Assembly: GCA_964642475.1 (NCBI GenBank)
Contig: CAZXRC010000004.1
Span: 4,604-68,603 of the forward strand
DNA length: 64,000 nt
Direction of reading: 5' to 3'
DNA from: an uncultured Gemmatimonadaceae bacterium
GTDB lineage: Bacteria > Gemmatimonadota > Gemmatimonadetes > Gemmatimonadales > GWC2-71-9
Made by a program: the position numbers and the translations under genes. Under the pieces are notes generated by a model. The model saw nothing but the letters and a program-made list of their open reading frames with translations, was not told the DNA's origin and did no database searches. Numbering within the stretch: position 1 is the first letter of the stretch; each line of letters begins with the position of its first letter. Shown here piece after piece: positions 8,344 to 24,861 of this stretch.

Positions 8344-8748
8344 TCAATACTCCTCGAGATCCAACCCCTCGACCGGATCGATCGAGTCGGTCTCCGCGAC
8401 CGGGTACATCGCCACGCTGACATAATGGCCCGGGTGATTTCGGATCCACGAGCGGAAGGTCAGTTGCTGCTGGAGCGCGGCTTCGACCTCGGCCAGCTCA
8501 CGAGTGGTGTAGCCCTCCGGCAGCGCCCGCTTGTGCCGCTGGATTTCGCGGATGCTCGCCGAGAGGAGCGACATCAGCAGGTCGCGGTTGATACAGAGCT
8601 CCACCGGCATCAGCATATTGATACCGCGGGGCATGGCATACCCGCCCTCGGCACCCTCCGCGGGGGTGGCGGACTCCGGGGTGCCGGCCGGCGGCGCGGG
8701 GAGCTCGGGGTGCCAGTCGTTGAGCAGGCGGCGAATTCGGTTCTGCAT
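8344..8748 (-). CDS. hypothetical protein (134 aa)
   Basis: Strong GC3 codon bias. GGAGAG about 8 nt upstream of the ATG. No family recognised. Confidence 0.6.
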   Translation of the reverse strand: MQNRIRRLLNDWHPELPAPPAGTPESATPAEGAEGGYAMPRGINMLMPVELCINRDLLMSLLSASIREIQRHKRALPEGYTTRELAEVEAALQQQLTFRSWIRNHPGHYVSVAMYPVAETDSIDPVEGLDLEEY

Positions 8749-8871
8749 GGGGCGTCTCTCCAGGATTTCCTCCCTCTAGGTTTCGGATCATCCCGGTGAA
8801 AACTTGAGGCTTCGGCGCTACATTAGAAGTCCATGTAGTACAGCAGCTTACACCACGTCGCCAGGGTGCTC

Positions 8872-9375
8872 ATGGCCAGCAATCCCTCGTTCGATGTCTC
8901 GACCGGAGCCGACCTGCAGGAGGTCGACAACGCCGTCAACCAGGCGCTCAAGGAGATCGCCCAACGCTATGACTTCAAGGGCACCCACTGCGTCATCGAA
9001 TTCGACCGCACCAAGGCGGAAATCCGGCTGAGTGCCGACGACGATTTCCGGATGGATCAGCTGCTGGAGGTGCTTCGAACCAAGCTGGTCAAGCGCAACG
9101 TCCCGGTGAAGAATCTCAACATCGGCGATCCCGTCGCCGGGACTGGCACCACGGTCCGGCGCACCGTGGGGCTGACCCAGGGGATTCCGCAGGACGCCGC
9201 CAAGAAGATGATCAAGGCCATCAAGGACCAGGGATTCAAGAAGGTCCAGTCCACGATCCAGGGCGACGAAGTCCGGGTCACCGCGCCCTCCCGGGACGAG
9301 CTGCAGGCGGTCATCGCGTTCCTGCGCGGCCAGGACTTCGGGATCGAGCTCAAATTCGGCAACTATCGTGGCTGA
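8872..9375 (+). CDS. yajQ: YajQ family nucleotide-binding protein (UPF0234)
   Basis: MASNPSFDVS...DLQEVDNAVNQALKEIAQRYDFKG...IELKFGNYRG is typical of the YajQ family. Start moved from GTG 8866 to ATG 8872. Confidence 0.85.
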   Translation: MASNPSFDVSTGADLQEVDNAVNQALKEIAQRYDFKGTHCVIEFDRTKAEIRLSADDDFRMDQLLEVLRTKLVKRNVPVKNLNIGDPVAGTGTTVRRTVGLTQGIPQDAAKKMIKAIKDQGFKKVQSTIQGDEVRVTAPSRDELQAVIAFLRGQDFGIELKFGNYRG

Positions 9376-10660
9376 TCCGCGGGCGCACCGGGGGGCGCGT
9401 CGGCTTCGCTGGCTCCTCGGCGCGGCCTCCACTGCCGGGGTGATGACCTGCACGCCGCAGGAGCCACCGGGGGTCTCGCCGGCGCCGCCGAACGAACCCG
9501 CCACCGAGGTCCCCGGGCCCGAGATCCGGATCGGACTCGTGGTCGGGGGTGGGCGGGTCGAGTTGTCGGGGGATAGCGGACTCGCAATCCTCGACGCCGA
9601 CAGCACTCCGGCCGGCGATGGGGCCCCGGGCGCGGCCTGGACGGTACGCCCGGACGGGGCGCGCCTCACCGCGACCGCGCCGGGCGGATGGCGCCTCGAC
9701 AACCAGATCGCCCTCACCTTCCTCCCCCGCACGTCGGTGGGGCGGGTGCTGGTCAACGGTCGACCCTACCGCGGGCGGGTGAGTGTCGTGCGGGACCGCT
9801 CCGGGGTGACCGCGGTGAATCTGGTGGACGTCGAGTCCTACCTGCTGGGGGTCGTGCCGGCCGAAATGGGCCGGCGCGATCCCTCCGAGCTCGAGGCTCT
9901 CGCCGCCCAGTCGGTTGTTTCCCGCACCTTCGCCATCAGGAACCTGGGAAAGCGCGCCGCCGAGGGGTTCGACCTCTACGGCACGGTGGTAGACCAGGTC
10001 TATGGCGGGGTGAGTGCCGAGAACGAGCTGACGAGCGGTGCCGTCCGCCGCACCGCGGGGCAGGTGCTTACCTGGCAGGGCGTTCCGATCGATGCCTTCT
10101 TCTTCTCGACCTGCGGCGGCCGGACCGCCTCCGGCACCGAAGTCTTCGTCGCCGCCGACCGCCCCTACCTCAAGACTGTCCCGGACCTGGACGGGTCGGG
10201 GCAGGCCTGGTGCCGAATCTCCCCCCGCTACCGCTGGCGGGAGGAGTGGAGCGGCGACCAGCTCCGAGGCACGCTCCGCCAGTCGTTGCCGCCCGCGACG
10301 GGCACGCCGGCCGAAGAGGCGGCCACGGCGACGGGGGTGGCGGTGGCCACCCGAACCGGATCCGGCCGGGTGGCGAGCGTGACAGTGCAGCTCCAGAGCG
10401 GCGCCGTCGAAGTCCGGGGCCCAGCCGTGCGACAGGTGCTCCGTCCGCCGGGGGAAGCCCTCCTGCGCAGTGCCATCTTTCGCCTGACCGAGGTCCGAAG
10501 CGAGGGGCGACTGCTCCGGCTGGTGGCCGACGGGAATGGCGCGGGCCACGGCGTCGGTTTCTGTCAGTGGGGGGCGGTGGGCCGGGCCCGGGGCGGGCAG
10601 GATGCGCGCGCTATCCTATCTGCCTACTTTCCCGGCACGACCATCAGTCGAGCCTACTAG
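9368..10660 (+). CDS. SpoIID/LytB domain-containing protein (secreted/lipoprotein)
   Basis: SYLLGVVPAEMG, ALAAQSVVSRTFAI, VVDQVYGG, FFFSTCGGRT, HGVGFCQWGA. N-terminal signal ending in ...GVMTC. Confidence 0.85.
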   Translation: MADPRAHRGARRLRWLLGAASTAGVMTCTPQEPPGVSPAPPNEPATEVPGPEIRIGLVVGGGRVELSGDSGLAILDADSTPAGDGAPGAAWTVRPDGARLTATAPGGWRLDNQIALTFLPRTSVGRVLVNGRPYRGRVSVVRDRSGVTAVNLVDVESYLLGVVPAEMGRRDPSELEALAAQSVVSRTFAIRNLGKRAAEGFDLYGTVVDQVYGGVSAENELTSGAVRRTAGQVLTWQGVPIDAFFFSTCGGRTASGTEVFVAADRPYLKTVPDLDGSGQAWCRISPRYRWREEWSGDQLRGTLRQSLPPATGTPAEEAATATGVAVATRTGSGRVASVTVQLQSGAVEVRGPAVRQVLRPPGEALLRSAIFRLTEVRSEGRLLRLVADGNGAGHGVGFCQWGAVGRARGGQDARAILSAYFPGTTISRAY

Positions 10661-10673
10661 TCACGGGGGATCC

Positions 10674-11684
10674 ATGTCCGACCCGATCCGGATCGGGATT
10701 ATCGGAGCCGGTGCCATCACCCAGGTCGCCCATCTTCCCGTGCTCCGGAAGCTCAAAGGCGTCCAGGTGGTCGGGATCTGCGATGCCGACCTCCCCAAGG
10801 CCCGGGCTCTGGCGGAGCGATTTCAGGTCCGAGACGCCTTCGCCGACATCGAAGAGTTGCTGGAGTTCGAAGAACTCGATGCGGTGGCCGTCTGTACCCC
10901 CAACCACCTGCATGAGCCCCACGTGGTCGCGGCGCTCTCGGCCGGGGTTCACGTCCTGGTGGAGCGCCCGCTGGCGCTCAACTTCGCCGGGGCCCAGCGA
11001 CTCCTGCGACAGGCCGAGAAACGTGACCGATTCCTGGTCGTGGGGATGAACCACCGCTACCGGGCCGACGTGCAGCTGGTGCGGAGCTTCATCCAGAGCG
11101 GTGAGCTGGGTCGACTGGAGAGTGTCCGGGGGAGCTGGCACGTCTTCCGCCCTACCCGGGCGCAGCTTGGCTGGCGGCAGCGGCGGGACGAGTCGGGCGG
11201 CGGAGCGATGCTCGACCTGGGTCACGCCATTCTCGACCTGGGCCTCTGGTTCGCCAACAACCCCAAGCCAGTACGGGTGAGCGCCAGTCTGCACGGAGGC
11301 GACTCCGCCAGAGGCGTGGAATCTTCGGGCAGCGCCTTCGTGGTCTGCGAGGGTGGCCTCTCGATCTTCCTCGACGTGACCTGGCACCATGTGGGGGAGG
11401 GGGAACGCTTCGGGCTCGGGCTGCGGGCGGCGAAGGGGACCGCCGGCATCAACCCACTGCACGTCTGGAAGGAACTGCATGGCGTTCCTACCGATGTCGC
11501 GCCGACCGGGGCGATCAGCCGGGAGAATGCCTTCACCGCCTCGTACCGGGCCGAGTGGGCCCACTTCCTCGCCGTGCTCCGGGGGGAGGCCAAACCCTTC
11601 GACAACGCCGAGCAGCTGGTCCTCCACAAGATCATCGATGCGATCTACAAGTCCGCGGCGGAAGGCAAGGACGTGGATCTGTGA
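10674..11684 (+). CDS. Gfo/Idh/MocA family oxidoreductase
   Basis: Trimmed to ATG 10674 (MSDPIRIGIIGAGAITQVAH). Rossmann GxGxxG, and the ERPLA motif (VLVERPLAL). Confidence 0.85.
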   Translation: MSDPIRIGIIGAGAITQVAHLPVLRKLKGVQVVGICDADLPKARALAERFQVRDAFADIEELLEFEELDAVAVCTPNHLHEPHVVAALSAGVHVLVERPLALNFAGAQRLLRQAEKRDRFLVVGMNHRYRADVQLVRSFIQSGELGRLESVRGSWHVFRPTRAQLGWRQRRDESGGGAMLDLGHAILDLGLWFANNPKPVRVSASLHGGDSARGVESSGSAFVVCEGGLSIFLDVTWHHVGEGERFGLGLRAAKGTAGINPLHVWKELHGVPTDVAPTGAISRENAFTASYRAEWAHFLAVLRGEAKPFDNAEQLVLHKIIDAIYKSAAEGKDVDL

Positions 11685-12976
11685 GGTGGCGGGCGGTCAG
11701 GCGGTCGGTGGGTCAGTCGCTGTGGCTGGTGCTTCTGCTCCTCCTCGTGCCGCCGAGTGTGGCGCAAACCGGGCCAATCACGCAGAAAGCCCAGACGGCT
11801 CCCGCTCCAGGTTCCGAGCTCACCATCTACGTAATGACGATGGGGGTCGGGGCCGAAGTGTGGGAGCGGTTCGGGCATAACGCCATCGTGGTCGAGGACC
11901 GCAGCCGCGGCACCGCCATCGCCTACAACTACGGGATGTTCAGCTTCCGGCAGGAGAATTTCGTCCTGCGGTTCATCCAGGGGCGCATGGACTACTGGAT
12001 GGCCGGGTACCCGGTGGCCGATGAAGTCCCCCGCTATCGAGGGATGCGCCGCTCGATCTGGCGCCAGGAGCTCAACCTCACCCCGACCGAACGGGCCGAG
12101 ATGCGCGATTTCCTGGAATGGAATGCGCGTGACGAGAACAAGTTCTACCGCTACGACTACTACCTCGACAACTGCTCCACCCGGGTGCGCGATGCCCTCG
12201 ACCGGATTCTGCATGGCGCGCTCAAGGCACAGTCCGCCGGCACCGCCTCCGGCAACTTTCGATTCCACACCCTCCGACTGGTAGCCGCCAATCCCTTCCT
12301 GTGGCTCGGTCTCGGCCTGATCGAAGGCCAGCCGGTCGACCGGCCCAACACCCGGTGGGAGGAGATGTTCCTGCCGCTCAAGCTGCGGGACTACCTCCGG
12401 GAGGTCACCGTCAAGGACTCCGCCGGCACCACCATGCCACTGGTTGTGCGCGAGGAGACGCTCTACCAGAGCACCGCGTTCCCCGTGCCCGAGGCACCGC
12501 CCAACTGGCAACTGCCGCTCCTGGGCATCGGGGCGCTGCTCGGCGCTCTCTTCTGGTGGGGAGGCACCCGAGGCAGGGCCGCGGCCCCGGCGCGGTACGC
12601 CCTCCTGGTGGGCGGGAGCTTCTGGGCCCTGCTGACGGGGGTGGCGGGGACGATCATGGTTGGGCTTTGGGCCTTCACCGACCATGCGGTCGCGGCCCGC
12701 AACGAGAACGTGCTGCAATGCTCCCTGGTGGCGCTGGTCCTCGCCGCGGCGCTGCCGTTTGCGGTGGGGGACCGCGATTGGGGAGGCCGCTGGGCCCGCG
12801 GGGCGGCGCTGTTGATCGGTGGGCTCTCGCTAGCCGGGGTGCTGCTCAAGCTGCTTCCCGGGTTCCACCAGGCGAACTGGCCGGTGCTGGCCGTGCTCGT
12901 CCCGGCGAATCTCGGGCTGGTGGCGGGGGTGCTGGCATGGACCAGGCCCAGCGAGCCCTCGCTCCGCGCGCGGTAG
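11681..12976 (+). CDS. DUF4105-type N-terminal domain membrane protein
   Basis: GTG 11681 overlaps the upstream stop (GTGA). Signal LWLVLLLLLVPPSVAQ; YVMTMGVGAEVWERFGHNAIVV; C-terminal multi-TM region. Confidence 0.7.
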   Translation: MRWRAVRRSVGQSLWLVLLLLLVPPSVAQTGPITQKAQTAPAPGSELTIYVMTMGVGAEVWERFGHNAIVVEDRSRGTAIAYNYGMFSFRQENFVLRFIQGRMDYWMAGYPVADEVPRYRGMRRSIWRQELNLTPTERAEMRDFLEWNARDENKFYRYDYYLDNCSTRVRDALDRILHGALKAQSAGTASGNFRFHTLRLVAANPFLWLGLGLIEGQPVDRPNTRWEEMFLPLKLRDYLREVTVKDSAGTTMPLVVREETLYQSTAFPVPEAPPNWQLPLLGIGALLGALFWWGGTRGRAAAPARYALLVGGSFWALLTGVAGTIMVGLWAFTDHAVAARNENVLQCSLVALVLAAALPFAVGDRDWGGRWARGAALLIGGLSLAGVLLKLLPGFHQANWPVLAVLVPANLGLVAGVLAWTRPSEPSLRAR

Positions 12977-13004: not shown

Positions 13005-14972
13005 CTACGGCCGATTCACCGCGATGCTGGCGCGCCGCCTCTCCTGGCGCTCCTCCCAGACCCGCGCCTCGATGAACACCCGGAACAGGTCGCCGTCGAG
13101 CTGACCCCGTTCCACCTCGTCCACCATGATGTCGAGCGCCCGTTCCGCCGGGAGCGCCCGCTTATAGGGGCGGTCCTGGGCGGTGAGGGCGTCGAAAATA
13201 TCGGCGATGGTCATCATCCGGGTCTGCAGCGGAATCTCCTCCGCCTTCACGTGCCGGGGATAGCCGGTGCCATCCAGCTTCTCATGGTGCCCCAGAGCGA
13301 TCTCCGGCACCCGGGCCAGCCCCCGGGTCCAGGGAATCCGCTCCAGGAAGGCGAAGGTGTGGTTGACGTGGCTCTCGATTTCGAGCCGTTCCCGCTCGTC
13401 CAGGCTGCCTTTGCGGATCGAGAGGTGTTTCTGCTCCCGGGCCGTGAGGAACGGCTGGGGTGCGCCGTCGATGTCGATGTACTGCCGCCCGGCGAACTCG
13501 CCCAGCTGGGCGAAATCGCCCTCCGCCAGCACGGTGGGCTCATTGGAGGCGAGGACCACCTTGAGAAAGCGGTCGGCCGTCTCGAGTGACTCCCGCTGGC
13601 GCTCGGACAGTTCCTTGAGGAATCGCTCGTAGCCCTCCCGGCCATGGGCCAGGAGGTAGTCGGCCCGGGCCCGTTCGAATTCCCACTCCGCGCTCCGGCG
13701 GACGAACGCATGACGCTGCCGGATGAGCGCGAGTTCCCCCTCGTACAGCTTTTTCGCCTTGACCAGCACCTGTTCCCGCACCCCGACCTTGCCGAAATCG
13801 TGGAGCAGCCCGGCGTAGCGGAGCTCCCGGACCTGCTCGGGACTGAAGCGGATCAGCTTGAACGGGCCCTCCTGGGCCCGGTCGAGCGCCTCGGCCAGGG
13901 CGACGGTCCGGAGCGCGACTCGCTCGGAATGCCCCGAGGTGGTCGGATCGCGCTGTTCGATGGCGTGGACCGCCGCCCGTACGAACCCCTCGAAGAGCCG
14001 CTCGATCGCTTCGTACAGCTGGCTGTTCTCGATCGAGACCGCCGCCTGGGAGGCCAGTGCGTTCACGATCTTCACCGTGTGGGCGCTGAAGGGCACGATC
14101 TGGCCTTCGGCGTCCTTCTCGCCCAGCCGGATCTCGGGGTCGCGCTTGCGGTTGATGAGCTGCAGCACGCCGATGACTTCCCCGTGGTGATTCTGCATCG
14201 GAATCACCAGCATGCTCTTGGTCCGGTACCCGTACCGCTCGTCAAACGACCGATTGAAGGAGTACTCCACCTCGGGCGGCAGGGTGTATACGTCCTCGAT
14301 GACCAGGGGGGAGCCCTCGGTGGCGACGTAGCCGGCCAGAGACGAGTGGTCGATGGGGACGCTGAATTCGACGAACGGGATGTCGGGGCGACTGTGGTTC
14401 TGGCTCAGCTTGACGCAGAGCCGCCGCTCGCCGCCGGGACTGGCCTCGGCGATGTAGAGGCTCCCGGCATCCGACTGGGTCACCCGGCGGGCCTGGGTGA
14501 GTATCAGGTCGAGCAGGGTCTCGAGGTTCTTCTCGGTTGTGAGCTGCACGCCGATATCGGCCAGCTCGGAGAGTTCGCTGAGCCGGGCGGCGCTCTCGTG
14601 CCGGGCCTGTCGGTGTTCCAGCGCGGAGGCCGACACCTGGAACGCCGCGCGTAGGGCCACCAGCAGCTGGCGCGGGCCGGCGGTGGAGGGGAGGAAGACG
14701 CTGAGCAGGTCGGCCGGCAGCTCCGCCGGGACATCCAGTTCGCCGGGGAGCCCCAGCGCCAGGATCGCCACCCCAGCGTCTTTGAGCCGGCCCAGGGTCG
14801 CGCGGCTCGCCCGGGTCCGGGCGGCGCCGTCGAGGAGGTAGGCGGAGGGACGGTGGTCGGGGCGGATCCGATCGGGGTGGTCCACCGCTTCGAGCTTCAC
14901 CTGCTCGGTCGCCAGCGCTTCGGCGACCGCCCCCGGATTCCACCCCGGCGCGTGATAGAGCAGGTACGTCAC
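13005..14972 (-). CDS. pseudo-receiver / GAF / HD-GYP domain protein (putative c-di-GMP phosphodiesterase)
   Basis: GTG 14972 overlaps the MlaD-like stop. REC-like N-terminus lacks the acidic pair and Lys. GAF region (SDAGSLYIAE...VIPMQNHHGEVIGVLQLINR). HD-GYP core (LLHDFGK ... HHEKLDGTGYP). The 1002-aa track ORF is a read-through artefact. Confidence 0.85.
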   Translation of the reverse strand: MTYLLYHAPGWNPGAVAEALATEQVKLEAVDHPDRIRPDHRPSAYLLDGAARTRASRATLGRLKDAGVAILALGLPGELDVPAELPADLLSVFLPSTAGPRQLLVALRAAFQVSASALEHRQARHESAARLSELSELADIGVQLTTEKNLETLLDLILTQARRVTQSDAGSLYIAEASPGGERRLCVKLSQNHSRPDIPFVEFSVPIDHSSLAGYVATEGSPLVIEDVYTLPPEVEYSFNRSFDERYGYRTKSMLVIPMQNHHGEVIGVLQLINRKRDPEIRLGEKDAEGQIVPFSAHTVKIVNALASQAAVSIENSQLYEAIERLFEGFVRAAVHAIEQRDPTTSGHSERVALRTVALAEALDRAQEGPFKLIRFSPEQVRELRYAGLLHDFGKVGVREQVLVKAKKLYEGELALIRQRHAFVRRSAEWEFERARADYLLAHGREGYERFLKELSERQRESLETADRFLKVVLASNEPTVLAEGDFAQLGEFAGRQYIDIDGAPQPFLTAREQKHLSIRKGSLDERERLEIESHVNHTFAFLERIPWTRGLARVPEIALGHHEKLDGTGYPRHVKAEEIPLQTRMMTIADIFDALTAQDRPYKRALPAERALDIMVDEVERGQLDGDLFRVFIEARVWEERQERRRASIAVNRP

Positions 14973-15907
14973 GGGACCGGTTGCTCCAGCACCGAGTCGC
15001 GGGAGATCTGGCGGACGCCGGTGAGCAGCCGGTGGGGTCGGCGGCTCACCTGATCGATGAAGTACTCGAACTTGGCGCTCACCACTCGCATCGTCTTGAG
15101 GGTTTGACGCACATCGGGCCCGACATCGGTGGTCAGCTGGTCGATGTTCCGGGTCAGGGTGTCGGCGTGGTTGATGAGCTGACGGGTGTCGGCCATCAGT
15201 ACCGTGAGCGAGTCGTGGATGGCCGCGAATCCGGTGTCGGCGTTGGCCAGGGTGGTTGTGGCGCGCGCCAGGAGCGGTTCCAGCCGGTCGAGGGCGGCCC
15301 GGGCACTGGCCAGGGTCTGGCGCACCTCCGGGGCGGTGCGCTGCACCTCCCGTTCGGCGGCTTCTGCGGTCCGGTTGAGAGTGCCGAGGAGGCTCCGGGT
15401 GTCGCGGAGGATGCCGGAGACCTGAGTCCGGAGGGTGTCGGCGACCTCCTTGACGACGTCGGTCCACCCCTGGGTCAGGGTGCCCCGGATGGTGTCGCCG
15501 GGCTGCAGCGCCGCCTGGATCTGATTGGGGGGTACCAGGAGCGAAATCGAGGCGCTCCCGATAAGCCCGGTCGAGATGATCTCCGCCCGGGTTCCGAGCG
15601 GCAGCCGGATGGGGAGGCCGTTGGCATAGCGCTCCCGGAGCCGGAGCCCCACCACGAAGAGCGGCGGGCCCATCCGCCCGCCGGTATCGGGCAGGGGAGA
15701 GATGTCCTTCACCTCGCCGATCGCCAGGCCCTGCAGGAGGACCGGCGTCTCCTGCTTGATGTCGGCGACGGTGGGGGTCACCATGTTGATGATGATTCGG
15801 CGCTCGGTCCAGCCGCGGGTGACCACCAGCGCGGCGAGGACTACGCCGATCGCCCCGAGGACCAGGGCGCCGACCAGGGCATCGGCGGTGCGGGGGCGGA
15901 GGCTCAT
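14969..15907 (-). CDS. MlaD/MCE family protein with long helical C-terminus
   Basis: N-terminal TM (LVGALVLGAIGVVLAALVV). MCE domain (VLLQGLAIGEVKDI). ATGA overlap with the upstream gene. Confidence 0.85.
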   Translation of the reverse strand: MSLRPRTADALVGALVLGAIGVVLAALVVTRGWTERRIIINMVTPTVADIKQETPVLLQGLAIGEVKDISPLPDTGGRMGPPLFVVGLRLRERYANGLPIRLPLGTRAEIISTGLIGSASISLLVPPNQIQAALQPGDTIRGTLTQGWTDVVKEVADTLRTQVSGILRDTRSLLGTLNRTAEAAEREVQRTAPEVRQTLASARAALDRLEPLLARATTTLANADTGFAAIHDSLTVLMADTRQLINHADTLTRNIDQLTTDVGPDVRQTLKTMRVVSAKFEYFIDQVSRRPHRLLTGVRQISRDSVLEQPVP

Positions 15908-16617
15908 GCCGGCTGCTCCACCTGGCCGCGGCGGACCCGGATCTGGCGGTCCACCCGTCGGCGGAGCAGCGCCGGCAGATCCTGCCCGGTGATGAACACG
16001 GTCCGCCGGCCACCCTCCGCCACCTCGCCGCCGCGCGCCAGCTCCAGCAGCTCGGCCGCCGCCTTCTCGGTGAGGCCGTCGAACGGCTCCTCGAGGATCA
16101 CCAGGTCGGGGTCGAACGCCAGGGCGCGTCCCAGGGCGGCGCGCCGCCGTTCCTCGGCGTTGGCCTGCGCCGGGCGGCGGTCGGCCACGCCGGTCAGCCG
16201 CAGCTGGGCCACGATCACGTCCACACGTCCCTCGATGTCCCTGGGGCGGAAGTTGCTTCCGAAACGAAGCGGGAGCCGGATGTTGTCGCGCAGGGAGAGA
16301 TTCTGCAACAGGCCGTCGCCGGCGGGAAGGTATCCGACCCTCCGGCGGAAGGCGAGTTGCCCCAACCGGTCGAGCGCGGCGACCTCGGTTCCCAACACCA
16401 GGACCCGGCCCTCGGGCACCCGATCGAGGCCCAGGGCGAGCCCGCCGAGGAGGTCGACGCCGCTGGTCTCGTCCCCGGTGGCGGCCACCGTCTGATGGGC
16501 CTGTACCTCGAGCGTGAGGAGACCCTCCCCGTCCACCGGCTGATGAGCCGGACCGCCGATGCTCGAACGTCGGATCCGGCGGAGCGCCACCCGCTCGAAG
16601 CTCAGCAGCGAGGTCAC
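15904..16617 (-). CDS. ABC ATPase-fold protein (MlaF-like) with degenerate catalytic motifs
   Basis: The ABC scaffold is recognisable (NLSLRDNIRLPL, RRRAALGRALAFDPDLVILEEPFDGL). Walker A reads TGDETSGVD (no Lys/Ser). The LSGGQ position reads ANAEE. Walker B Asp is replaced by Glu. The H-loop region reads FITGQD. Confidence 0.8.
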   Translation of the reverse strand: MTSLLSFERVALRRIRRSSIGGPAHQPVDGEGLLTLEVQAHQTVAATGDETSGVDLLGGLALGLDRVPEGRVLVLGTEVAALDRLGQLAFRRRVGYLPAGDGLLQNLSLRDNIRLPLRFGSNFRPRDIEGRVDVIVAQLRLTGVADRRPAQANAEERRRAALGRALAFDPDLVILEEPFDGLTEKAAAELLELARGGEVAEGGRRTVFITGQDLPALLRRRVDRQIRVRRGQVEQPA

Positions 16618-17399
16618 TGGGTCACCCCCACGATCAGCGCGGCGATCACGAAGATCAGGGCGATCGATCCGACCGTCCCGCGGATCACCGCCTGGGGGAT
16701 CTCGGTGGGGCCATGGCGGACCGAGAGGCCCTGGTAGCTGGGGATGATCCCGATGACGAGGCCGAAGAGGAGACCCTTCACCACGGTCAGGACCACGTCC
16801 TGGGTCGTGAGGTTCTGCAGGACGATGCCGAGGTAGCGGGCCCCGCTCATGCCGCCGTAGGCCACGGCGGCCAGATACCCGCCGACGATGGCGATCACGT
16901 CGAAGAGTATCATGAGGGTACCGACCGACAGGACACAGCCGAAGAGCCGGGGGAGGACCAGGTAGTGGTAGGGATCGATCCCCAGGCCCTCCAGGGCCCG
17001 GACTTCGCCCATGACCATGTTGGTGGCCAGCTCGGCGGTGATGGCGGTGCCGCTCCGGCTCACCACGGCGAGCGCGGTCAGCAGCGGCCCCAGCTCGCGC
17101 ACGATCACCACCACCATCAGCTCCCCGATGAACTCTGAGGCCCCGACCCGCGAGAGCTGGGTGAGGGTCGCGGAGATGGTCAGATAGCTGAGGACCCCGG
17201 AGAGCAGGACGATGAGGCCCACCGCCTGCAGGGCGGTGAAGCGGAGCTGGTTGAGGAGCACCCGGGCCGCGACCCGGCGCCCGGCGCCCGGGAGGGTGGG
17301 GATGGAGGCGACGGCCTCAAAGGCGAAGCGCGCCTGCGCGCCCACCAGGGCGAGCCAGCGCGCTGTCCCACGACCGATCGCGGTGAGGAGCCCGAGCAC
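16614..17399 (-). CDS. MlaE family ABC transporter permease
   Basis: 261 aa, multi-TM. Conserved stretch EFIGELMVVVIVRELGPLLTALAVVSRSGTAITAELATN is typical of MlaE/YrbE permeases. Confidence 0.85.
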   Translation of the reverse strand: MLGLLTAIGRGTARWLALVGAQARFAFEAVASIPTLPGAGRRVAARVLLNQLRFTALQAVGLIVLLSGVLSYLTISATLTQLSRVGASEFIGELMVVVIVRELGPLLTALAVVSRSGTAITAELATNMVMGEVRALEGLGIDPYHYLVLPRLFGCVLSVGTLMILFDVIAIVGGYLAAVAYGGMSGARYLGIVLQNLTTQDVVLTVVKGLLFGLVIGIIPSYQGLSVRHGPTEIPQAVIRGTVGSIALIFVIAALIVGVTQ

Positions 17400-17403
17400 G
17401 GAC

Positions 17404-18123
17404 TCAGGCTGGGTTGATCTTCTTCAGTCCCTCGCGGGCCTCGGTGTAATCCGGGAAGACCTTGAGCGCCCGACTGAAGTAGTCCGCGGCCTTGGCCTTG
17501 TCGCCCTGGTCCTGGTAGAGGAGGGCCCGGCTGTAGTACGAGAGCGCTTCGGTCGGGACGTTCCGGGCCTTGATCGCCCGGGCCTGCTCCTCGGTGAGGG
17601 GCGGCAGCTTGGTCTCCTTCATGAGGTTCTCGGCCACGGTCTGCATCAGCCGGGAAATGTCTTCCCGCTTCTCCAGCTTGGGATCGCCCCGCACCACCTT
17701 GAGGATCTCGCCGGTCTCGACCGAGACGAGGCGGGCATGAACCCGAAAGGTGCCATAGAGGTCGGTGAAGCCGCCGAGGACCATGTAGCGGGCGCCGACC
17801 AGCTTGCCGACCTTCGCCGCGGTCGCCGCATCCACGGCGCCGTCCTTGCCGAGCTTCTGCTCGTCGAGGATCTGCTGGATGGCCTCGCGGTCGACCAGGC
17901 GGGCGCCGGGGTTCTGGCCCAGCTCGTAAATGAGCATGCCGGCGAGCCCCTTCTCGAGCGCCTGGAAGTCCTCCTTGTCCCGGCCGTAGGAGCCGCCGTT
18001 GGTGAAGGGCATGACGGCAATGCCCGGCCGCGAGTCCTGGGCCCGGAGGGCGGGCGACAGAGACGCGAGGGCCACCACAGTCAGGGCACACAACACGCTA
18101 CGGCGTCGCATAGTCCACCTCAT
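17404..18123 (-). CDS. secreted CsgG/LpoB/FlgO-like domain protein with C-terminal TPR
   Basis: Signal peptide, then IAVMPFTNGG...LVDREAIQQILDEQKL...ARYMVLGGFTD, then TPR-like YYSRALLYQDQGDKAKAADYFSRALKVFPDYTEA. Family assignment is by pattern only. Confidence 0.6.
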   Translation of the reverse strand: MRWTMRRRSVLCALTVVALASLSPALRAQDSRPGIAVMPFTNGGSYGRDKEDFQALEKGLAGMLIYELGQNPGARLVDREAIQQILDEQKLGKDGAVDAATAAKVGKLVGARYMVLGGFTDLYGTFRVHARLVSVETGEILKVVRGDPKLEKREDISRLMQTVAENLMKETKLPPLTEEQARAIKARNVPTEALSYYSRALLYQDQGDKAKAADYFSRALKVFPDYTEAREGLKKINPA

Positions 18124-19037
18124 CAGAGAGTCAGCGCCATGCCTTCCATCGCGGCGTCCACCGCGAGCTCTGGCGCGCGCACGGCGGCGTTGCGTCGGGC
18201 GCCCGCGAGGAGCGCGTCGATCGCCGCGTCGTCGTGTTCCGGCTCATGGTGGAACAGCACCAGGCGCCGGCATCCCGCATCCCGGGCCAGGTCGATCGCC
18301 TGGTCGGGCGTGGAGTGTCCCCACCCGGACCGGCTCTCGATCATCGCCTCGGAGTACATCCCGTCATGTATTAACGTGTCCACCCCACTCAGGAATCTCA
18401 CCAGCGTGTGCCGCCAGTCGGGTGCCACGTCGTAGGTCCCCCCCTCACCCAGCTCGTTATCGGTCAGGTAGGCGAAGGTCCTCCCGCCCGAGACCGGGAC
18501 CAGCTTGTAGCCCAGCGTGGTTCCCGGGTGCCGCAGCCGGAACGCCTCGACCCGGAACCCATCGATTTCGAACGACCCCGAGCCCACCTCGGTGATGGTC
18601 AGGTCCGCGGCCAGCGCTTTGAGCGGCACCGGGAAGACCACCGGGTCCATCTGCCGATCGAGGATCCGCTCCAGGGACACCCCCGCCTGGGGAGCACCGT
18701 AGATCCGGACCGCGTTTCCCCGCGTGTTAAGCGGCTGGAAAAAGGGCAGGCCCTGGATGTGGTCCCAGTGGGTATGCGAGAGCAGGATATCGAGCTGCAT
18801 CGGGCCCTCGGTGGCCTTCGACAGCGCCCGTCCCAGCGGCCGGATGCCACTCCCGGCATCCAGGATGACCAGCTGGCCCGGCTGCCCCGAAACCGCCACA
18901 CAGGAGGTATTTCCGCCATAGCGCGCGGTATGTGCCCCAGGTGTCGGGATCGACCCTCTCGTTCCCCAGAACGTGACCGTGTAGCCCAACGGCTCCTCGG
19001 TGTAACTGTGTCTCTCAGTGTGCAAGGACCCTGCCAT
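18123..19037 (-). CDS. MBL-fold metallo-hydrolase (possible phosphodiesterase)
   Basis: HTHWDH metal-binding motif, LTDNE, GWGHST, FHHEP. The stop overlaps the downstream start by 1 nt (TGATG). Confidence 0.85.
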   Translation of the reverse strand: MAGSLHTERHSYTEEPLGYTVTFWGTRGSIPTPGAHTARYGGNTSCVAVSGQPGQLVILDAGSGIRPLGRALSKATEGPMQLDILLSHTHWDHIQGLPFFQPLNTRGNAVRIYGAPQAGVSLERILDRQMDPVVFPVPLKALAADLTITEVGSGSFEIDGFRVEAFRLRHPGTTLGYKLVPVSGGRTFAYLTDNELGEGGTYDVAPDWRHTLVRFLSGVDTLIHDGMYSEAMIESRSGWGHSTPDQAIDLARDAGCRRLVLFHHEPEHDDAAIDALLAGARRNAAVRAPELAVDAAMEGMALTL

Positions 19038-19078: not shown

Positions 19079-19756
19079 TCACGAACGGCCGGCGGCGCGC
19101 TCCAGCAGCGGGCGATTGGCGATCGAAATCTCCCGGCGGGTCACCTTGATCAGGCCGCGCTCGACAAAGTCTCGCATCGTGCGGGAAACGGTCTCCCGGC
19201 TGGAGCCGATCATCTGGGCGATGACGTGGTGGGTGATCTTCTTGGTGATCTCCTGGCCCCCCTCCTCGTCCGCCAGGCGGAGCAGCAGGTCGGCCACCCG
19301 ACCGTTGACGTCGAGGAGGACCAGGCTGCCGATCTTCTCGTCGGCGCGCCGCAGGCGGCGAGACAGCTCGCGCAGGAGCGCGATGGCGACCTCGGGGGAG
19401 TTCCTGAGTCGGGCCTGGAAGTCCTCGCGCCGAAGCACCAGTACCGCGGCATCGGTCATTGCGATCACGGTGGCGGAGCGGGGCTGATCGTCGATCAGGC
19501 TCATCTCGCCGAAGAAACTCCCTTCCGCGAGCACCGAGAGAATGACTTCCCGGCCGTCTTCGCCGATGAGGACCACTTTCACCTGTCCGGACGCGACCAG
19601 GTAGAGGGCGTCTCCCGGATCGTCCTCAAAGACGATCACACTCCCTTTGGGATAGCTTCGCTCCCGCACCAGCTCGGCAAAGGCAGTGATGTCACCTTCC
19701 CGCATGGTGGCGAACAGGGGAACCTTCTTCAGGACCTCAAGCGGGGTCAGGGACAC
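19079..19756 (-). CDS. Crp/Fnr family transcriptional regulator (cNMP-binding + HTH)
   Basis: cNMP-binding fold (FGEMSLIDDQPRSATV). C-terminal HTH (TVSRTMRDFVERGLI). GTG start at 19756. Confidence 0.9.
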   Translation of the reverse strand: MSLTPLEVLKKVPLFATMREGDITAFAELVRERSYPKGSVIVFEDDPGDALYLVASGQVKVVLIGEDGREVILSVLAEGSFFGEMSLIDDQPRSATVIAMTDAAVLVLRREDFQARLRNSPEVAIALLRELSRRLRRADEKIGSLVLLDVNGRVADLLLRLADEEGGQEITKKITHHVIAQMIGSSRETVSRTMRDFVERGLIKVTRREISIANRPLLERAAGRS

Positions 19757-19788: not shown

Positions 19789-19818
19789 ACTATACTTAGA
19801 CTGCCGGCTCGTTGTCAA
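19789..19818 (-). promoter_or_regulatory. near-consensus sigma-70 promoter TTGACA-N18-TATAGT upstream of the crp-like gene
   Basis: Minus strand reads TTGACAacgagccggcagtctaagTATAGT. The -10 lies about 33 nt upstream of the GTG start. Confidence 0.55.
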
Positions 19819-19894
19819 ACGGGCGACGGCTGGGCCGACCGCCCTGGGGCTGCCGCCGGATGGACCCAGGATGGTGCCAATGGGGACCGCGCAG

Positions 19895-19924
19895 TTGAAC
19901 CCAACCGCGCATCCCGGCTATATT
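19895..19924 (+). promoter_or_regulatory. sigma-70-like promoter TTGAAC-N18-TATATT upstream of rpmE
   Basis: TTGAACccaaccgcgcatcccggcTATATT. Followed by a CCTCGG-CCAAAT-CCGAGG hairpin and GGAG before the GTG start. Confidence 0.5.
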
Positions 19925-19993: not shown

Positions 19994-20218
19994 GTGAAAG
20001 CGAATGCCCACCCGGTGTACCACAAGGTCATGGTGCAGTGCGCCTGCGGGAATCAGTTCGAGACCCGTTCCACCAGCGCCAATGTCCACGTGGAAATCTG
20101 CGCCAAGTGCCACCCCTACTTCACCGGCAAACAGCGGCTGATCGACACCCAGGGCCGCGTCGACCGTTTCCGGAAGAAGTACCAGGCCGAGAAGGCGCCG
20201 GCCTCGAGCCAGAGCTGA
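19994..20218 (+). CDS. rpmE: 50S ribosomal protein L31
   Basis: MKANAHPVYHKVMVQCACGNQFETRST...CAKCHPYFTGKQ, the Zn-ribbon (Cys-containing) form. GTG start. Confidence 0.95.
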   Translation: MKANAHPVYHKVMVQCACGNQFETRSTSANVHVEICAKCHPYFTGKQRLIDTQGRVDRFRKKYQAEKAPASSQS

Positions 20219-20221
20219 CCG

Positions 20222-21280
20222 ATGGAGGCCCGACTCCGCCAGGCGCTGGCCCGGGCGGAGGAGGTCGCCGCGGCGCTGGCCGACCCTTCGACCGCCGCCA
20301 ATCCCGCCAAACTCAGGGCCCTCGGTCGGGAGCACACCCGGCTCGCGCCGGTGGTGCGCGCCGCGGAGCGGCTCCAGAAACTCCAGGACGAACTCGCCCA
20401 GGCCAGGGAGATGGCGGCGGAGCCCGATCCCGAGCTCGCCGCCCTCGCCAGGGCTGACCTTGCCCGGCTCCCCGCTGAGATGGCGCCGCTCGAAACCGAG
20501 CTCCATGACCTGCTCCTCCCGCGCGACCCGCTCGACGACCGCGACGCGATCGTGGAAATCCGGGCCGGTACCGGAGGGGACGAGGCGGCCCTTTTCGCCG
20601 CCGATCTGCTCCGGATGTATCAACGGTTCGTGCAGCGGAAGAATCTCACCGTCGAGCCGATCTCGCTCAGCGACGGGGTGAGCGGCGGCCTCAAGGAAGC
20701 GATCTTCGCGGTGCGGGGCGACGATGCCTTCGGTCTGCTCCGGCGCGAGGCTGGAGTGCATCGGGTGCAGCGGGTCCCGGCCACCGAGTCGCAGGGGCGC
20801 ATCCACACCTCGGCCGCGACGGTGGCGGTGCTTCCCGAGGCGGAGGAAGTGGACGTTACCATCCAGCCGCAGGACCTCCGGATCGACGTCTTTCGCTCCG
20901 GGGGCCCGGGTGGCCAGAGCGTGAATACCACCGACAGTGCGGTGCGGATCACCCACCTGCCGACCGGCCTGGTGGTGTCGCAGCAGGACCAGAAGTCGCA
21001 GCTCCAGAACAAGCTCAAGGCCATGGAGGTGCTGCGGGCGCGGCTGCTCGACCGGATGATCGCGGAACAGGAGGCGGCCCGTTCCCGGGAGCGGCGCTCG
21101 ATGGTCGGGACCGGCGATCGCTCGGCCAAGATCCGGACCTACAACTATCCGCAGAGCCGGGTGACCGACCATCGCATCAACCTCTCGGTGCACAATCTCG
21201 CGGAAGTGCTGGATGGCAAGCTGGACGATTTCGTCGACGCCCTTCGCATGGCCAGCCGGCAGGAGCAGCTGGGTGCCTGA
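20222..21280 (+). CDS. prfA: peptide chain release factor 1
   Basis: PAT tripeptide (RVPATES) and GGQ motif ([24 protein letters not shown]). Confidence 0.95.
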
Positions 21281-22130
21281 TGGGGAGGTGCGGGTGAGCA
21301 CGCTGCTGGACCGGGCGACCACTCGACTCCGCGCGGCAGGTATCGAGCAGCCGCGGCGCGAGGCCCGCCGGATCTGGAGCGATCTCGAGGAACTCGCCGG
21401 CAGGGCTGCCGCACGCGCCGACCAGGAAACCGTCCCCGGGCCTGCCGCGGTGGCGGCCTACGAGGCGGCGACCGAACGGCGGGCGGCGGGCGAGCCGCTG
21501 GCCTACGCCACCGGACTCGCCGGCTTCCGCCGCCTCACGCTCCGGGTGGACCGCCGGGTGCTGATCCCGCGGCCCGAGACGGAGGGGCTGGTCGACCTGG
21601 TACTCCAGCGCTGCCCCACCGGGCGGGTTGCCGACGTCGGCACCGGCAGCGGATGCGTCGCCCTGGCGCTGGCGGATGAGGGTCGCTTCACGCTGGTGGC
21701 CGGGATTGACCGGTCGGCCGCCGCGCTGGAGGTTGCCGGAGAGAACCGGCGCCGGACGGGGTGTCGGGTGGCGCTGGTACGGGGTGACCTGCTCGACGCG
21801 GTCGGCGCCCGGACGCTGGACGCGGTGGTGTCGAACCCGCCCTACATTTCCGAGCGGGAGTACCTCGCACTTGATCCTTCAGTGCGGGCGTGGGAGCCGA
21901 GGGAGGCGCTGGCCAGCGGTGCCGACGGCATGGACGCGACCGTTCGGGTGATCGCCGAGGCCCGGCGGGTGACACGGCGGGACGGGTGGCTGGCACTCGA
22001 GGTCGACGCCAGTCGGGCCGGCGCGGTTGCGACCGCGGCGGCCGGAGCCGGATGGAACGAGGTGAGCGTACACATGGACCTTTTCGGCCGCGCTCGATAC
22101 GTACTGGCGCGGAGAAACGAGGCGGAGTGA
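21273..22130 (+). CDS. prmC: release factor glutamine N5-methyltransferase
   Basis: SAM-binding [15 protein letters not shown] and the NPPY motif (VSNPPYISE). The start is ambiguous among GTG 21273/21288/21294. Confidence 0.85.
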
Positions 22131-22480
22131 TCTGGGACAAGGCGGAAGATCTCGGGCGCATGATCGGGCAGACGCCGGAGTACAAGGCGCTGCGGCGGGC
22201 GGAGACGGCGCTTCGGGAGGACCAGGAGGCGCAGGCCAAGGTAGACACCATCCAACGGCTGGCGCGCCAGATGGACGAGCTGGTGGCGCAGGGCCAGATG
22301 CCCGACCAGGCCACCGCCGAGACCTACGAACAGGCCGTGCGCGATCTCGAGGTGAGTCCCTCGGGGCAGGCCTACGCGGTTGCCCGGGCCAACTTCGAGA
22401 AGGTGATGATCAAGGTGAATCAGCTGATCGCCCAGGGGATGGAGAAGGGCGCGACGAGCAACATCATTACGCTGGGATGA
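22127..22480 (+). CDS. YlbF/YmcA-like (UPF0342-type) helical protein
   Basis: GTG 22127 overlaps the prmC stop. 117 aa, helical, pattern ...IGQTPEYKALRRAETALREDQEAQAKVDTIQRL...NFEKVMIKVNQLI. Assigned by pattern only. Confidence 0.5.
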   Translation: MIWDKAEDLGRMIGQTPEYKALRRAETALREDQEAQAKVDTIQRLARQMDELVAQGQMPDQATAETYEQAVRDLEVSPSGQAYAVARANFEKVMIKVNQLIAQGMEKGATSNIITLG

Positions 22481-23115
22481 GCCGCGGGTTCTTCCTGGTG
22501 GTGGAAGGCACCGAGGGGGCCGGCAAGTCGACCCTCGCCCGGGGCCTGGCCGAGCGTTTGACCGCGGCGGGGCTCGAGCCGGTGCTGGTGCGGGAGCCGG
22601 GGGGAACACCCGTGGCCGAGCGGATCCGGGCGATCCTGCTCGATCCCGACCACCCGATCGAGCCGGTGAGCGAGCTGCTGCTCTTCCTGGCCGCCCGCGC
22701 CGACCTGGTGGCCCGGGTCATTGCGCCGGCACTCGCCGCCGGGCGAACCGTGCTCGCCGATCGCTTTCAGCTTTCGACCGAGGCGTACCAGTGTGGGGGG
22801 CGCGGCCTCGCGACGTCCCTCTTTCAGGATGCCAATCGGGCCGCGACCGGCGGACTGCAACCCGATCTGACGCTGATCCTCGATCTCCCGCCCCAGGTCG
22901 GATTCCAGCGCATCGCGGCGAAGGGCCTCGGGCTCGACCGGATCGAACAGGCCGGCCCTGACTTCCATGCCCGGGTGGCGGAGGTCTTCCGACGGGCCAC
23001 AGGCCCCGGAATCGCCCACCTGGACGCTACCCACCCGGCGGAACAGGTCTTGCTGGCCGCATGGGAGGAGATCCGGAACCGTCATCCGGGCGCGCGGCCG
23101 GCCGGTCACCATTAG
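22477..23115 (+). CDS. tmk: dTMP (thymidylate) kinase
   Basis: FFLVVEGTEGAGKST P-loop; REPGGTPV; ATGA overlap with the upstream stop. Confidence 0.9.
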   Translation: MSRGFFLVVEGTEGAGKSTLARGLAERLTAAGLEPVLVREPGGTPVAERIRAILLDPDHPIEPVSELLLFLAARADLVARVIAPALAAGRTVLADRFQLSTEAYQCGGRGLATSLFQDANRAATGGLQPDLTLILDLPPQVGFQRIAAKGLGLDRIEQAGPDFHARVAEVFRRATGPGIAHLDATHPAEQVLLAAWEEIRNRHPGARPAGHH

Positions 23116-23128
23116 CTTGCAAGCAGGC

Positions 23129-23158
23129 GCGCCGGGGCCTCGTTCGGGGCCCCGGCGC
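23129..23158 (+). terminator. GC-rich hairpin after tmk (possible terminator, no U-tract)
   Basis: GCGCCGGGGCC-tcgttcgg-GGCCCCGGCGC, a perfect 11-bp stem. Confidence 0.35.
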
Positions 23159-23178
23159 AGATTCACTGGAGGAATCGC

Positions 23179-24813: not shown

Positions 24814-24861
24814 CCTATCGCTCCTCTGCTGGAAGTCCCCGCCGCCTTCGCCACCGGGCTG

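Follow-up and report, generated by a model that had tools for sequence, protein, structure and literature searches.

What does a gene contribute to a transporter operon when it occupies the place of the motor ATPase and encodes the fold of one, and yet has lost the residues with which such a motor works? This question is raised by a 64-kb stretch of DNA, hereafter the window, from an uncultured Gemmatimonadaceae soil bacterium of the Gemmatimonadales (GCA_964642475.1, contig CAZXRC010000004.1, positions 4,604-68,603). Its minus strand carries a cluster of seven genes in the order Crp-like, MBL, CsgG/TPR, MlaE, pseudo-NBD, MlaD and REC-like-GAF-HD-GYP. As expected of an Mla/MCE-type system, both an MlaE-family permease and an MCE-domain protein are encoded, and between their genes lies one for a protein that resembles the nucleotide-binding domain (NBD) of a transporter of the ATP-binding cassette (ABC) type, at the position of MlaF. 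The original prediction, made from this locus, had described the protein as a pseudo-ATPase that has been kept as a subunit with a structural or regulatory role, and had proposed that the complex is either powered by an ATPase encoded elsewhere or repurposed, for example as a sensor coupled to the downstream HD-GYP protein. The pseudo-ATPase reading is well supported by the computational analysis presented here, through degeneracy shared among orthologs, purifying selection and a level of conservation like that of MlaE. Beyond that prediction, losses were found also in the Q-loop and the D-loop, the replacement residues proved to be conserved, and the protein turned out to belong to one of several such families.

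The presence of an ABC-fold gene at the MlaF position was confirmed by its open reading frame (ORF) on the minus strand (Table 1), by the Pfam model ABC_tran (PF00005; 37.9 bits against a cut-off of 25 bits) and by an AlphaFold2 model computed with 36 family members as input, which reached a predicted local distance difference test score of 87.4 and a predicted template modelling score of 0.87. A Foldseek search with this model retrieved the NBDs of YbbA, LolD, MacB, FtsE, MetN and MlaF with E-values of about 1e-18 to 1e-16 and template modelling (TM) scores of about 0.8. The topology of a P-loop is visible in the model as a strand (residues 43-48), a loop (49-53) and a helix (54-61); the strand 172-176 corresponds to the Walker B strand and the strand 206-211 lies just before the H-loop position.

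In ABC ATPases the beta and gamma phosphates and Mg2+ are bound by the Lys and Ser/Thr of Walker A, and the ATP site is closed by the signature motif of the opposite monomer; to coordinate Mg2+ and to hydrolyse ATP, the Walker B Asp/Glu, the Q-loop Gln and the H-loop His are required. The corresponding positions of the pseudo-NBD were located by three independent routes, namely HMMER alignment to NBDs of the PDB (DppD, PsdA), MAFFT alignment to Escherichia coli MlaF and the topology of the AlphaFold2 model. All three agree, and they reproduce each motif reading of the original prediction (TGDETSGVD, ANAEE, ILEEP and FITGQD). This agreement rules out a misalignment that hides intact motifs, and no intact GxxGxGK[ST] or LSGGQ occurs elsewhere in the protein. 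The Walker A consensus is broken at its two decisive residues, Lys being replaced by Val54 and Ser/Thr by Asp55. The catalytic-Glu position is kept as E177, and the A-loop aromatic is probably a Leu (L12), in a region where the alignment is less certain. In E. coli MlaF, even the Walker A substitution K47R, at the position held here by Val54, abolishes both ATPase activity and complementation (PMC5016091). From this behaviour and from the state of the motifs, the pseudo-NBD is predicted to have lost ATP binding and hydrolysis, and it should be unable to run an ATP-driven dimerisation cycle. Since the Walker A side and the signature side are both degenerate, pairing with a canonical NBD in a heterodimer would still give no consensus site.

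With its fold kept, its catalytic residues gone and its sequence under purifying selection, the protein fits the definition of a pseudoenzyme and should be filed neither as MlaF nor as an ATPase. What it shares with MlaF is a place next to mlaE and mlaD within a single operon. With the MlaF equivalog model (NF008809/PRK11831) its score is 49.8 bits, where 441 bits are required, and all NCBIfam models stay below their cut-offs, DevA scoring best (66.6 versus 295.8). The partner MlaB and the C-terminal 'handshake' are missing as well: the chain stops at residue 237, without a counterpart of the part of MlaF beyond about residue 240, and Pfam detects no STAS/MlaB domain among the seven proteins of the cluster. 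At present, proteins of this kind carry the annotation 'MlaF' or 'ATP-binding cassette domain-containing protein'.

The degenerate state of the motifs is common to all orthologs examined. A search of about 5.8 billion proteins gave more than 1000 relatives, of which the best 120 protein clusters (63-100% identity) were analysed; where named, they are annotated as proteins of Gemmatimonadales/Gemmatimonadota metagenome-assembled genomes (MAGs). No public record was retrieved when the exact sequence of the window protein was looked up. A scan of one genome per GTDB species placed relatives in at least 131 species, and the 80 loci inspected among these 131 all stem from Gemmatimonadota/Gemmatimonadales MAGs. 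Walker A is lost in 119 of the 120 homologs, and 117 have Ala at the Q-loop position. The substitutions are thus shared, which speaks for conserved degeneracy and not for recent decay, the two outcomes that the original prediction had distinguished. The pseudo-NBD ORF is intact in 80 genome loci (221-243 codons). The ratio of nonsynonymous to synonymous substitution rates (dN/dS, Nei-Gojobori) amounts to 0.15-0.19 when the three closest orthologs are compared; over 2987 pairs its median is 0.31. Across the species-level loci, the median identity to the window proteins is 68% for the pseudo-NBD, 67% for MlaE, 79% for the Crp-like protein and 40% for MlaD, whose gene evolves fastest in the cluster. 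Intact ORFs in 80 genomes, dN/dS values of 0.15-0.35 and thus well below 1, family-wide substitutions and a confidently predicted fold together refute the explanation that the gene is a decaying pseudogene, or that a strain-specific lesion or a sequencing artefact has produced the unusual motifs.

Selection can also be recognised in the residues that took the place of the catalytic ones. At the P-loop position, 77 distinct orthologs show G in 97%, D in 95%, E in 97%, S in 96%, G in 100%, V in 87% and D in 70%. In the former signature E155 is invariant and the remaining positions are semi-conserved; at the former Walker B site E176 is conserved in 96% and the motif P-F-x-G is invariant. Five residues of a family-specific loop (R195, G196, G197, G202 and R205) do not vary at all. 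The H-loop position is occupied by Gln, Pro or Ala, and position 177 varies between E, Q and D, as expected if catalysis is not under selection. Mere relaxation predicts variable residues at the former ATP site; the near-invariance of the new ones argues for a new selected role of this site. The best-conserved part of the protein is the Q-loop and the segment behind it, with mean column entropies of 0.21-0.48 bits compared to 1.14 bits for the whole protein, and here the stretch G-Y-L-P-A-G-D-G-L-x-Q-N-L-x-L-R-D-N-x-x-L-P-L-R-F-G-S is nearly invariant across orthologs. Further conserved stretches are R-P-A..E-x-R-R-R-A-A-L-x-R-A-x-A-F-D-P, L-E-x-P-F-D-G-L-T and A-R-G-G-E-x-x-E-G-x-R-R.

How such a protein is integrated into the transporter can be approached through its operon. 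The mlaE stop codon and the pseudo-NBD start codon overlap by 4 nucleotides (nt), as they do in 57 of 81 loci. The same overlap joins the pseudo-NBD stop to the mlaD start (37 of 81 loci, the others having mostly gaps of 0-13 nt), and the CsgG-TPR gene ends 4 nt upstream of mlaE, a distance that is mostly 3-10 nt across loci. The order of the seven genes is present in each related locus long enough to show it, and the codon overlaps are stronger evidence of an operon than this order. The only minus-strand sigma-70-like match between 12700 and 20100 lies just upstream of crp (TTGACA-18-TATAGT); shuffled sequence gives 0.4 matches on average. Translational coupling to mlaE, together with the peak of conservation after the Q-loop, makes it most likely that the pseudo-NBD docks on MlaE in a 2:2 arrangement. 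By analogy with other ABC transporters, residues 96-123 may form the coupling-helix groove that faces MlaE, and two copies of the pseudo-NBD would dock on the MlaE dimer through these residues. They would serve as a fixed clamp or adapter rather than as a motor, and the complex of MlaE and MlaD probably works without an ATP motor at this position.

The source of energy might nevertheless be sought elsewhere, as the original prediction had done in its first option. A canonical MlaF-like ATPase encoded at another site would then either replace the pseudo-NBD on MlaE, in the manner of MceG, or heterodimerise with it. Mycobacterial Mce operons do use an unlinked ATPase, and the search for ABC ATPases covered the 64-kb window, which leaves room in the rest of the genome. 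In support of such an arrangement, some Gemmatimonadetes carry additional MlaE/MlaD sets with a syntenic MlaF (PMC10665443, Suppl. Data 1). The coupling to mlaE and the preserved, presumed coupling-helix groove argue to the contrary that the pseudo-NBD itself should fill the NBD sites. A heterodimer would lack any consensus ATP site, whereas all known heterodimeric ABC transporters, to our knowledge, keep one. Finally, tblastn with E. coli MlaF and LolD retrieved only the pseudo-NBD gene, and hence no second ABC ATPase, in the window. With the coupling to mlaE and the degeneracy of both halves of the composite site, a drive by an ATPase encoded elsewhere is disfavoured, and we consider it improbable.

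If the pseudo-NBD is not a motor, the remodelled ATP site calls for a different explanation. The acidic former site (G-D-E-x-S-G-V-D, A-N-A-E-E, L-E-E) and the R-G-G-E..E-G-x-R-R loop would bind something new, be it a partner protein, a cation or a small ligand, because both are under selection. It is conceivable that the new ligand is again a nucleotide, and that ATP or GTP, or a cyclic mono- or dinucleotide such as cyclic AMP (cAMP) or cyclic di-GMP (c-di-GMP), binds in a non-canonical way and gates the transporter. The Gly/Ser backbone of the loop is kept (G48, S52 and G53 are invariant), the residues that replace the catalytic ones are conserved, domains related to cyclic nucleotides abound in the operon (the Crp-type domain binding cyclic nucleotide monophosphates (cNMP), GAF, HD-GYP and MBL), and ATPases such as FleQ, MshE and FliI are known c-di-GMP receptors. 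The electrostatics of the site point in the opposite direction. The only basic phosphate-binding residue has been lost and three to four acidic ones have been gained (D49, E50, D55, E155/156, E176), which is unfavourable for a phosphate-bearing ligand unless a metal acts as a bridge, and there is no clean match to a known c-di-GMP-binding motif. Nucleotide gating of this sort is accordingly a very unlikely account of the site.

The gene that follows mlaD offers another candidate. Comparison with orthologs places the true start of the HD-GYP gene at the GTG at 14972, which overlaps the mlaD stop by 4 nt, and the same 4-nt overlap is found in 72 of 75 loci. The HDxGK and GYP motifs are kept in all 68 full-length orthologs of this putative c-di-GMP phosphodiesterase. 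Its N-terminal region of about 115 residues (14598-14972, minus strand) is a conserved receiver-like domain in which the Asp at the end of strand 3 (LLD) is kept and the acidic pair after strand 1 is lost; a profile search against PDB sequences gave weak matches only, to CpaE-N, HupR and response-regulator/HD receivers. Judged by these residues, the domain looks like a pseudo-receiver. RpfG-type REC-HD-GYP proteins likewise combine a receiver N-terminus with intact HD and GYP motifs; the window protein differs from them in the lack of the acidic pocket after strand 1, in an inserted GAF domain and in being coupled to an MCE gene and not to a sensor kinase. The product of this translationally coupled gene would be the likeliest partner of the pseudo-NBD, and the resulting complex would link the state of an MCE conduit in the envelope to c-di-GMP turnover, in either direction. 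The complex appears to be tied to c-di-GMP signalling, and the idea of a repurposed sensor coupled to the HD-GYP protein draws what support it has from gene neighbourhood: the overlap just described and a sister family beside a GAF-GGDEF gene.

This sister family came to light when the breadth of the phenomenon was explored. A profile search of 1.84 billion cluster representatives at 50% identity returned 18 matches below 1e-30, among which P0121, P0122 and P0123 are full-length clusters and most others are fragments. Scores of 329, 237 and 227 bits are followed by those of generic ABC ATPases at about 140 bits; so sharp a drop after so few matches marks the window family as narrow. Of 75 single-domain representatives among the 150 best-ranked matches, 22 have no Walker A Lys; the list is enriched by the query profile and gives no estimate of frequency. 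These sequences suggest that many such degenerate families exist. For five degenerate proteins the gene context could be read; each of them belongs to an MlaE-X-MlaD operon, and together they make up three groups.

The first group is a second Gemmatimonadota family of 278 amino acids (P0147 and about 30 further clusters, P0277-P0305) with replacement motifs of its own that are equally conserved: x[DE]SEWxxR, YLFHNSGLI, LDExxRKR, [IL]EDPLxDID and TSQG. Its operon reads MlaE-X-MlaD-AP_endonuc_2 and always lies beside a divergently transcribed GAF-GAF-GGDEF cyclase with an intact GGEEF motif and an RxxD site. From this gene context, the cyclase may represent a second, independent association with c-di-GMP enzymes. 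The second group belongs to the Spirochaetota (P0237 and about 50 clusters, P0329-P0377; L089:6001-6777, GCA_018399855.1) and is found in the context MlaE-X-MlaD-glycosyltransferase cluster. At the P-loop position it carries G-x-E-[ND]-S-G-[IV]-[DE] and so repeats the pattern of replacement seen in the window family; the Walker B position reads LLLIEHPLEGQC (L-I-E-H-P), and the H-loop has a Tyr. The third group consists of two degenerate ABC-like proteins, P0180 (L088:1107-1802) and P0154 (L090:2313-2957), each encoded between MlaE and MlaD genes; the MlaE of the former locus has an extra N-terminal region of about 150 amino acids. Neighbour-joining trees with 100 bootstraps, computed with and without the motif columns, recovered the window family with 99-100% and the second Gemmatimonadota family with 100% support. 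The two were grouped with each other in 26-37% of replicates, and no supported clade unites all degenerate proteins; long-branch effects are likely in these trees.

A simpler reading of all these operons would assign the pseudo-NBD a purely structural task: it fixes the conformation of the MlaE dimer in an energy-independent lipid conduit or tether, and the HD-GYP, Crp and MBL genes are co-expressed with it without any physical coupling of their products to it. There are MCE systems that lack an ABC ATPase, as is known for PqiABC and LetAB, the segment presumed to face the transmembrane domain is the most conserved one, and the Spirochaetota family has the same loop motif without a signalling gene nearby. 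In addition, for Gemmatimonas aurantiaca and G. phototrophica a published survey lists two MlaE and two MlaD and no syntenic MlaF (PMC10665443), which suggests that an operon-encoded motor is dispensable in the phylum. A mere clamp, however, leaves the near-invariant residues of the former ATP site and the RGGE..EG.RR loop unexplained, and the almost constant overlap of mlaD with the HD-GYP gene, taken together with the GAF-GGDEF neighbour of the second family, points to more than co-expression. We therefore regard the purely structural reading as less likely than the coupling role, though it is quite plausible.

The reading that we favour, with moderate confidence, is that selection maintains the pseudo-NBD as a scaffold or coupling subunit without catalytic function, in an MlaE-MCE complex that is independent of ATP and linked to the turnover of c-di-GMP. 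Several points weigh against it. The pseudo-NBD might still bind ATP or another nucleotide in a non-canonical way, and the additional MlaE/MlaD sets in some Gemmatimonadetes genomes, some of them with syntenic MlaF (PMC10665443, Suppl. Data 1), imply that a canonical ATPase may exist elsewhere in the host genome. The link to the HD-GYP protein is drawn entirely from gene order and translational coupling. Gene order is here an ambiguous guide: synteny with distant Gemmatimonadales genomes extends over a block of about 26 kb that includes prfA, prmC, rpmE, tmk, SpoIID and YajQ, and as housekeeping genes share this synteny, conserved order by itself is weak evidence of functional linkage. The proposed interface and the electrostatic argument come from sequence and from general knowledge of ABC proteins. 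Finally, no c-di-GMP gene is present in the neighbourhood inspected around the Spirochaetota family, so the c-di-GMP link is not the general reason for having a pseudo-NBD.

A broader version of the favoured coupling role can be formulated, which we put forward as a speculation with a small chance of being right. At least the Gemmatimonadota and Spirochaetota would then share an unrecognised class of MCE complexes in which a pseudo-NBD with a G-x-E-x-S-G-[VI]-[DE] loop is a transmembrane coupling device and not an energiser; in the Gemmatimonadota, HD-GYP enzymes in one lineage and GGDEF enzymes in another would be informed by it of the lipid or occupancy state of MlaE-MCE, or signals would pass in the reverse direction.

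Comparison with known systems shows where the window system stands. The gene for MlaF of the MlaFEDB complex of E. coli and Acinetobacter baumannii likewise lies next to mlaE and to an MCE/mlaD gene, the stop and start codons overlapping. The two proteins are alike in their single-domain NBD fold (Foldseek TM score 0.82 to 6xbd chain I) and have a similar NLSLRDNI..PL stretch in the helical subdomain. In contrast to MlaF, the pseudo-NBD has all ATP motifs replaced, lacks the MlaB/STAS partner and has no C-terminal extension (237 versus 269 amino acids), and the window system differs from MlaFEDB in its long MlaD (312 amino acids) and in the CsgG/TPR, HD-GYP, Crp and MBL genes. Two further comparisons draw on established knowledge. 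Mycobacterial Mce/YrbE systems, served by MceG (Mkl), also combine an MlaE-family permease and MCE proteins without a functional operon-encoded ATPase; there, however, the operon has no NBD gene and a canonical ATPase acts in trans, whereas here an NBD-fold gene is coupled, conserved and catalytically void. PqiABC and LetAB are a precedent for MCE systems without an ABC ATPase, but their PqiA and LetA are unrelated to MlaE and no NBD-like subunit is present. Transporters with one degenerate site, such as TM287/288, TAP1/2, CFTR and MsRv1273c/72c, likewise tolerate non-consensus Walker B, H-loop or signature residues and use them for regulation. They keep one consensus site, and their degenerate site binds ATP, whereas in the pseudo-NBD both halves of the site are degenerate, the Walker A Lys is lost, and no second NBD is encoded in its operon or in the window. 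Strongly conserved ABC NBDs with such a double degeneracy are not known to us, nor did they turn up in the literature searched.

Pseudo-NBDs may already be present, under other names, in published data. A survey of Mla components (PMC10665443, Suppl. Data 1) reports 1-4 MlaE and 1-3 MlaD in five of six Gemmatimonadetes genomes, some with a syntenic 'MlaF', and none in the sixth; it also contains E-?-D triplets whose middle gene is not called MlaF (e.g. OGU05225/OGU05227 and KPJ97199/KPJ97201). These data fit pseudo-NBDs that escape the MlaF profiles, with paralogous canonical systems in some genomes. Profile-based detection of MlaF probably misses pseudo-NBDs, and in published MlaF surveys they seem to have been overlooked or wrongly classified. 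Neither a pseudo-NBD in Mla/MCE systems nor a link between MCE proteins and c-di-GMP is described in the full-text literature searched, a result that is not proof for all literature.

The features of the locus are collected in Table 1. In the MCE protein an N-terminal membrane anchor and the MCE domain are followed by a C-terminal extension. The latter, about 190 amino acids long, may form a periplasmic tube or bridge, as in the long MlaD or Mce proteins. E. coli MlaD has 183 amino acids, and the extension gives weak matches to Pfam families of coiled-coil type (DUF948). A 1002-amino-acid ORF at 13005-16013 on the minus strand, which runs in another frame and overlaps mlaD and the pseudo-NBD gene, is a high-GC artefact, one of many long spurious ORFs on both strands of this region. 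A plus-strand match TTGAAC-18-TATATT (9/12) precedes rpmE and is divergent with the crp site in the crp-rpmE intergenic region (19789-19924). The syntenic block comprises on one side (8359-12949) YajQ (8872-9369), whose family is nucleotide-binding, SpoIID (9395-10657), a GFO/IDH oxidoreductase (10674-11681) and a Lnb_N-family protein (11771-12949), and on the other side (19994-26453) rpmE, prfA, prmC, a ylbF-like gene, tmk, an S41 protease, TauE and DUF2520.

Table 1. Genes and motifs of the cluster in window positions, and loci of the second Gemmatimonadota family in positions of their own sequences.
Feature	Position	Strand	Remarks
Pseudo-NBD gene	15904..16617	-	237 amino acids, GTG start; ABC fold at MlaF position
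Former Walker A, G48-D-E-T-S-G-V54-D55	16453..16476	-	Read by hand from the DNA; aligned to GPSGSGKT/GESGSGKS and to GPSGIGKT of E. coli MlaF
Q-loop position and following helical-subdomain stretch, YLPAGDGLLQNLSLRDNIRLPLRFG	16258..16332	-	Gln replaced by A99, in YLPAGDG
Former LSGGQ signature, A152-N-A-E-E156	16150..16164	-	From alignments to PDB NBDs and MlaF
Former Walker B and D-loop, L-V-I-L-E176-E177-P-F-D-G-L-T183	16069..16104	-	Asp replaced by E176; SALD replaced by DGLT
Family-specific loop, R195-G-G-E-x-x-E-G-x-R-R205	16003..16035	-	About 6 residues longer than the LolD/MlaF loop
Former H-loop, T-G-Q212-D	15979..15990	-	His replaced by Gln
MlaE-family permease gene	16614..17399	-	261 amino acids; Pfam MlaE 2.4e-53; NCBIfam TIGR00056
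MCE/MlaD-family protein gene	14969..15907	-	312 amino acids; Pfam MlaD 7.1e-8; NCBIfam Mtu_fam_mce (TIGR00996) 3.9e-13
REC-like-GAF-HD-GYP protein gene	13005..14972	-	655 amino acids; putative c-di-GMP phosphodiesterase; Pfam GAF and HD_5/HD
Secreted CsgG/LpoB-like and TPR protein gene	17404..18123	-	239 amino acids; Pfam CsgG 1.9e-17, TPR
MBL-fold hydrolase gene	18123..19037	-	304 amino acids; RNase Z-like; weak match to cyclic-nucleotide phosphodiesterase family
Crp/Fnr-family regulator gene	19079..19756	-	225 amino acids; cNMP-binding domain; first gene of the cluster
Sigma-70-like promoter match, TTGACA-18-TATAGT	19789..19818	-	11/12; consensus match only
Second-family loci	L087:5840-6676; L092, L093, L094:8001-8837		

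Mla/MCE systems are central to the lipid homeostasis of the outer membrane, and their energetics and direction of transport are debated. A phylum-wide MlaE-MCE complex with an NBD predicted to be incapable of the ATP cycle is a natural test of ATP-free MlaE-MlaD function, and the pseudo-NBD family would extend the concept of pseudoenzymes to the core motor of a transporter. The pseudo-NBD, whose function we infer, should come as a surprise to specialists of ABC transporters and of lipid trafficking. The appearance of the same replacement loop in two phyla, if convergent, points to a specific new role of the former ATP site. At the level of the operon, the HD-GYP and GGDEF neighbours suggest an unexplored connection between the envelope lipid machinery and c-di-GMP. 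Should the broader coupling-device reading be true, a machine of the Mla type would serve to sense the envelope or would be a conduit that c-di-GMP gates.

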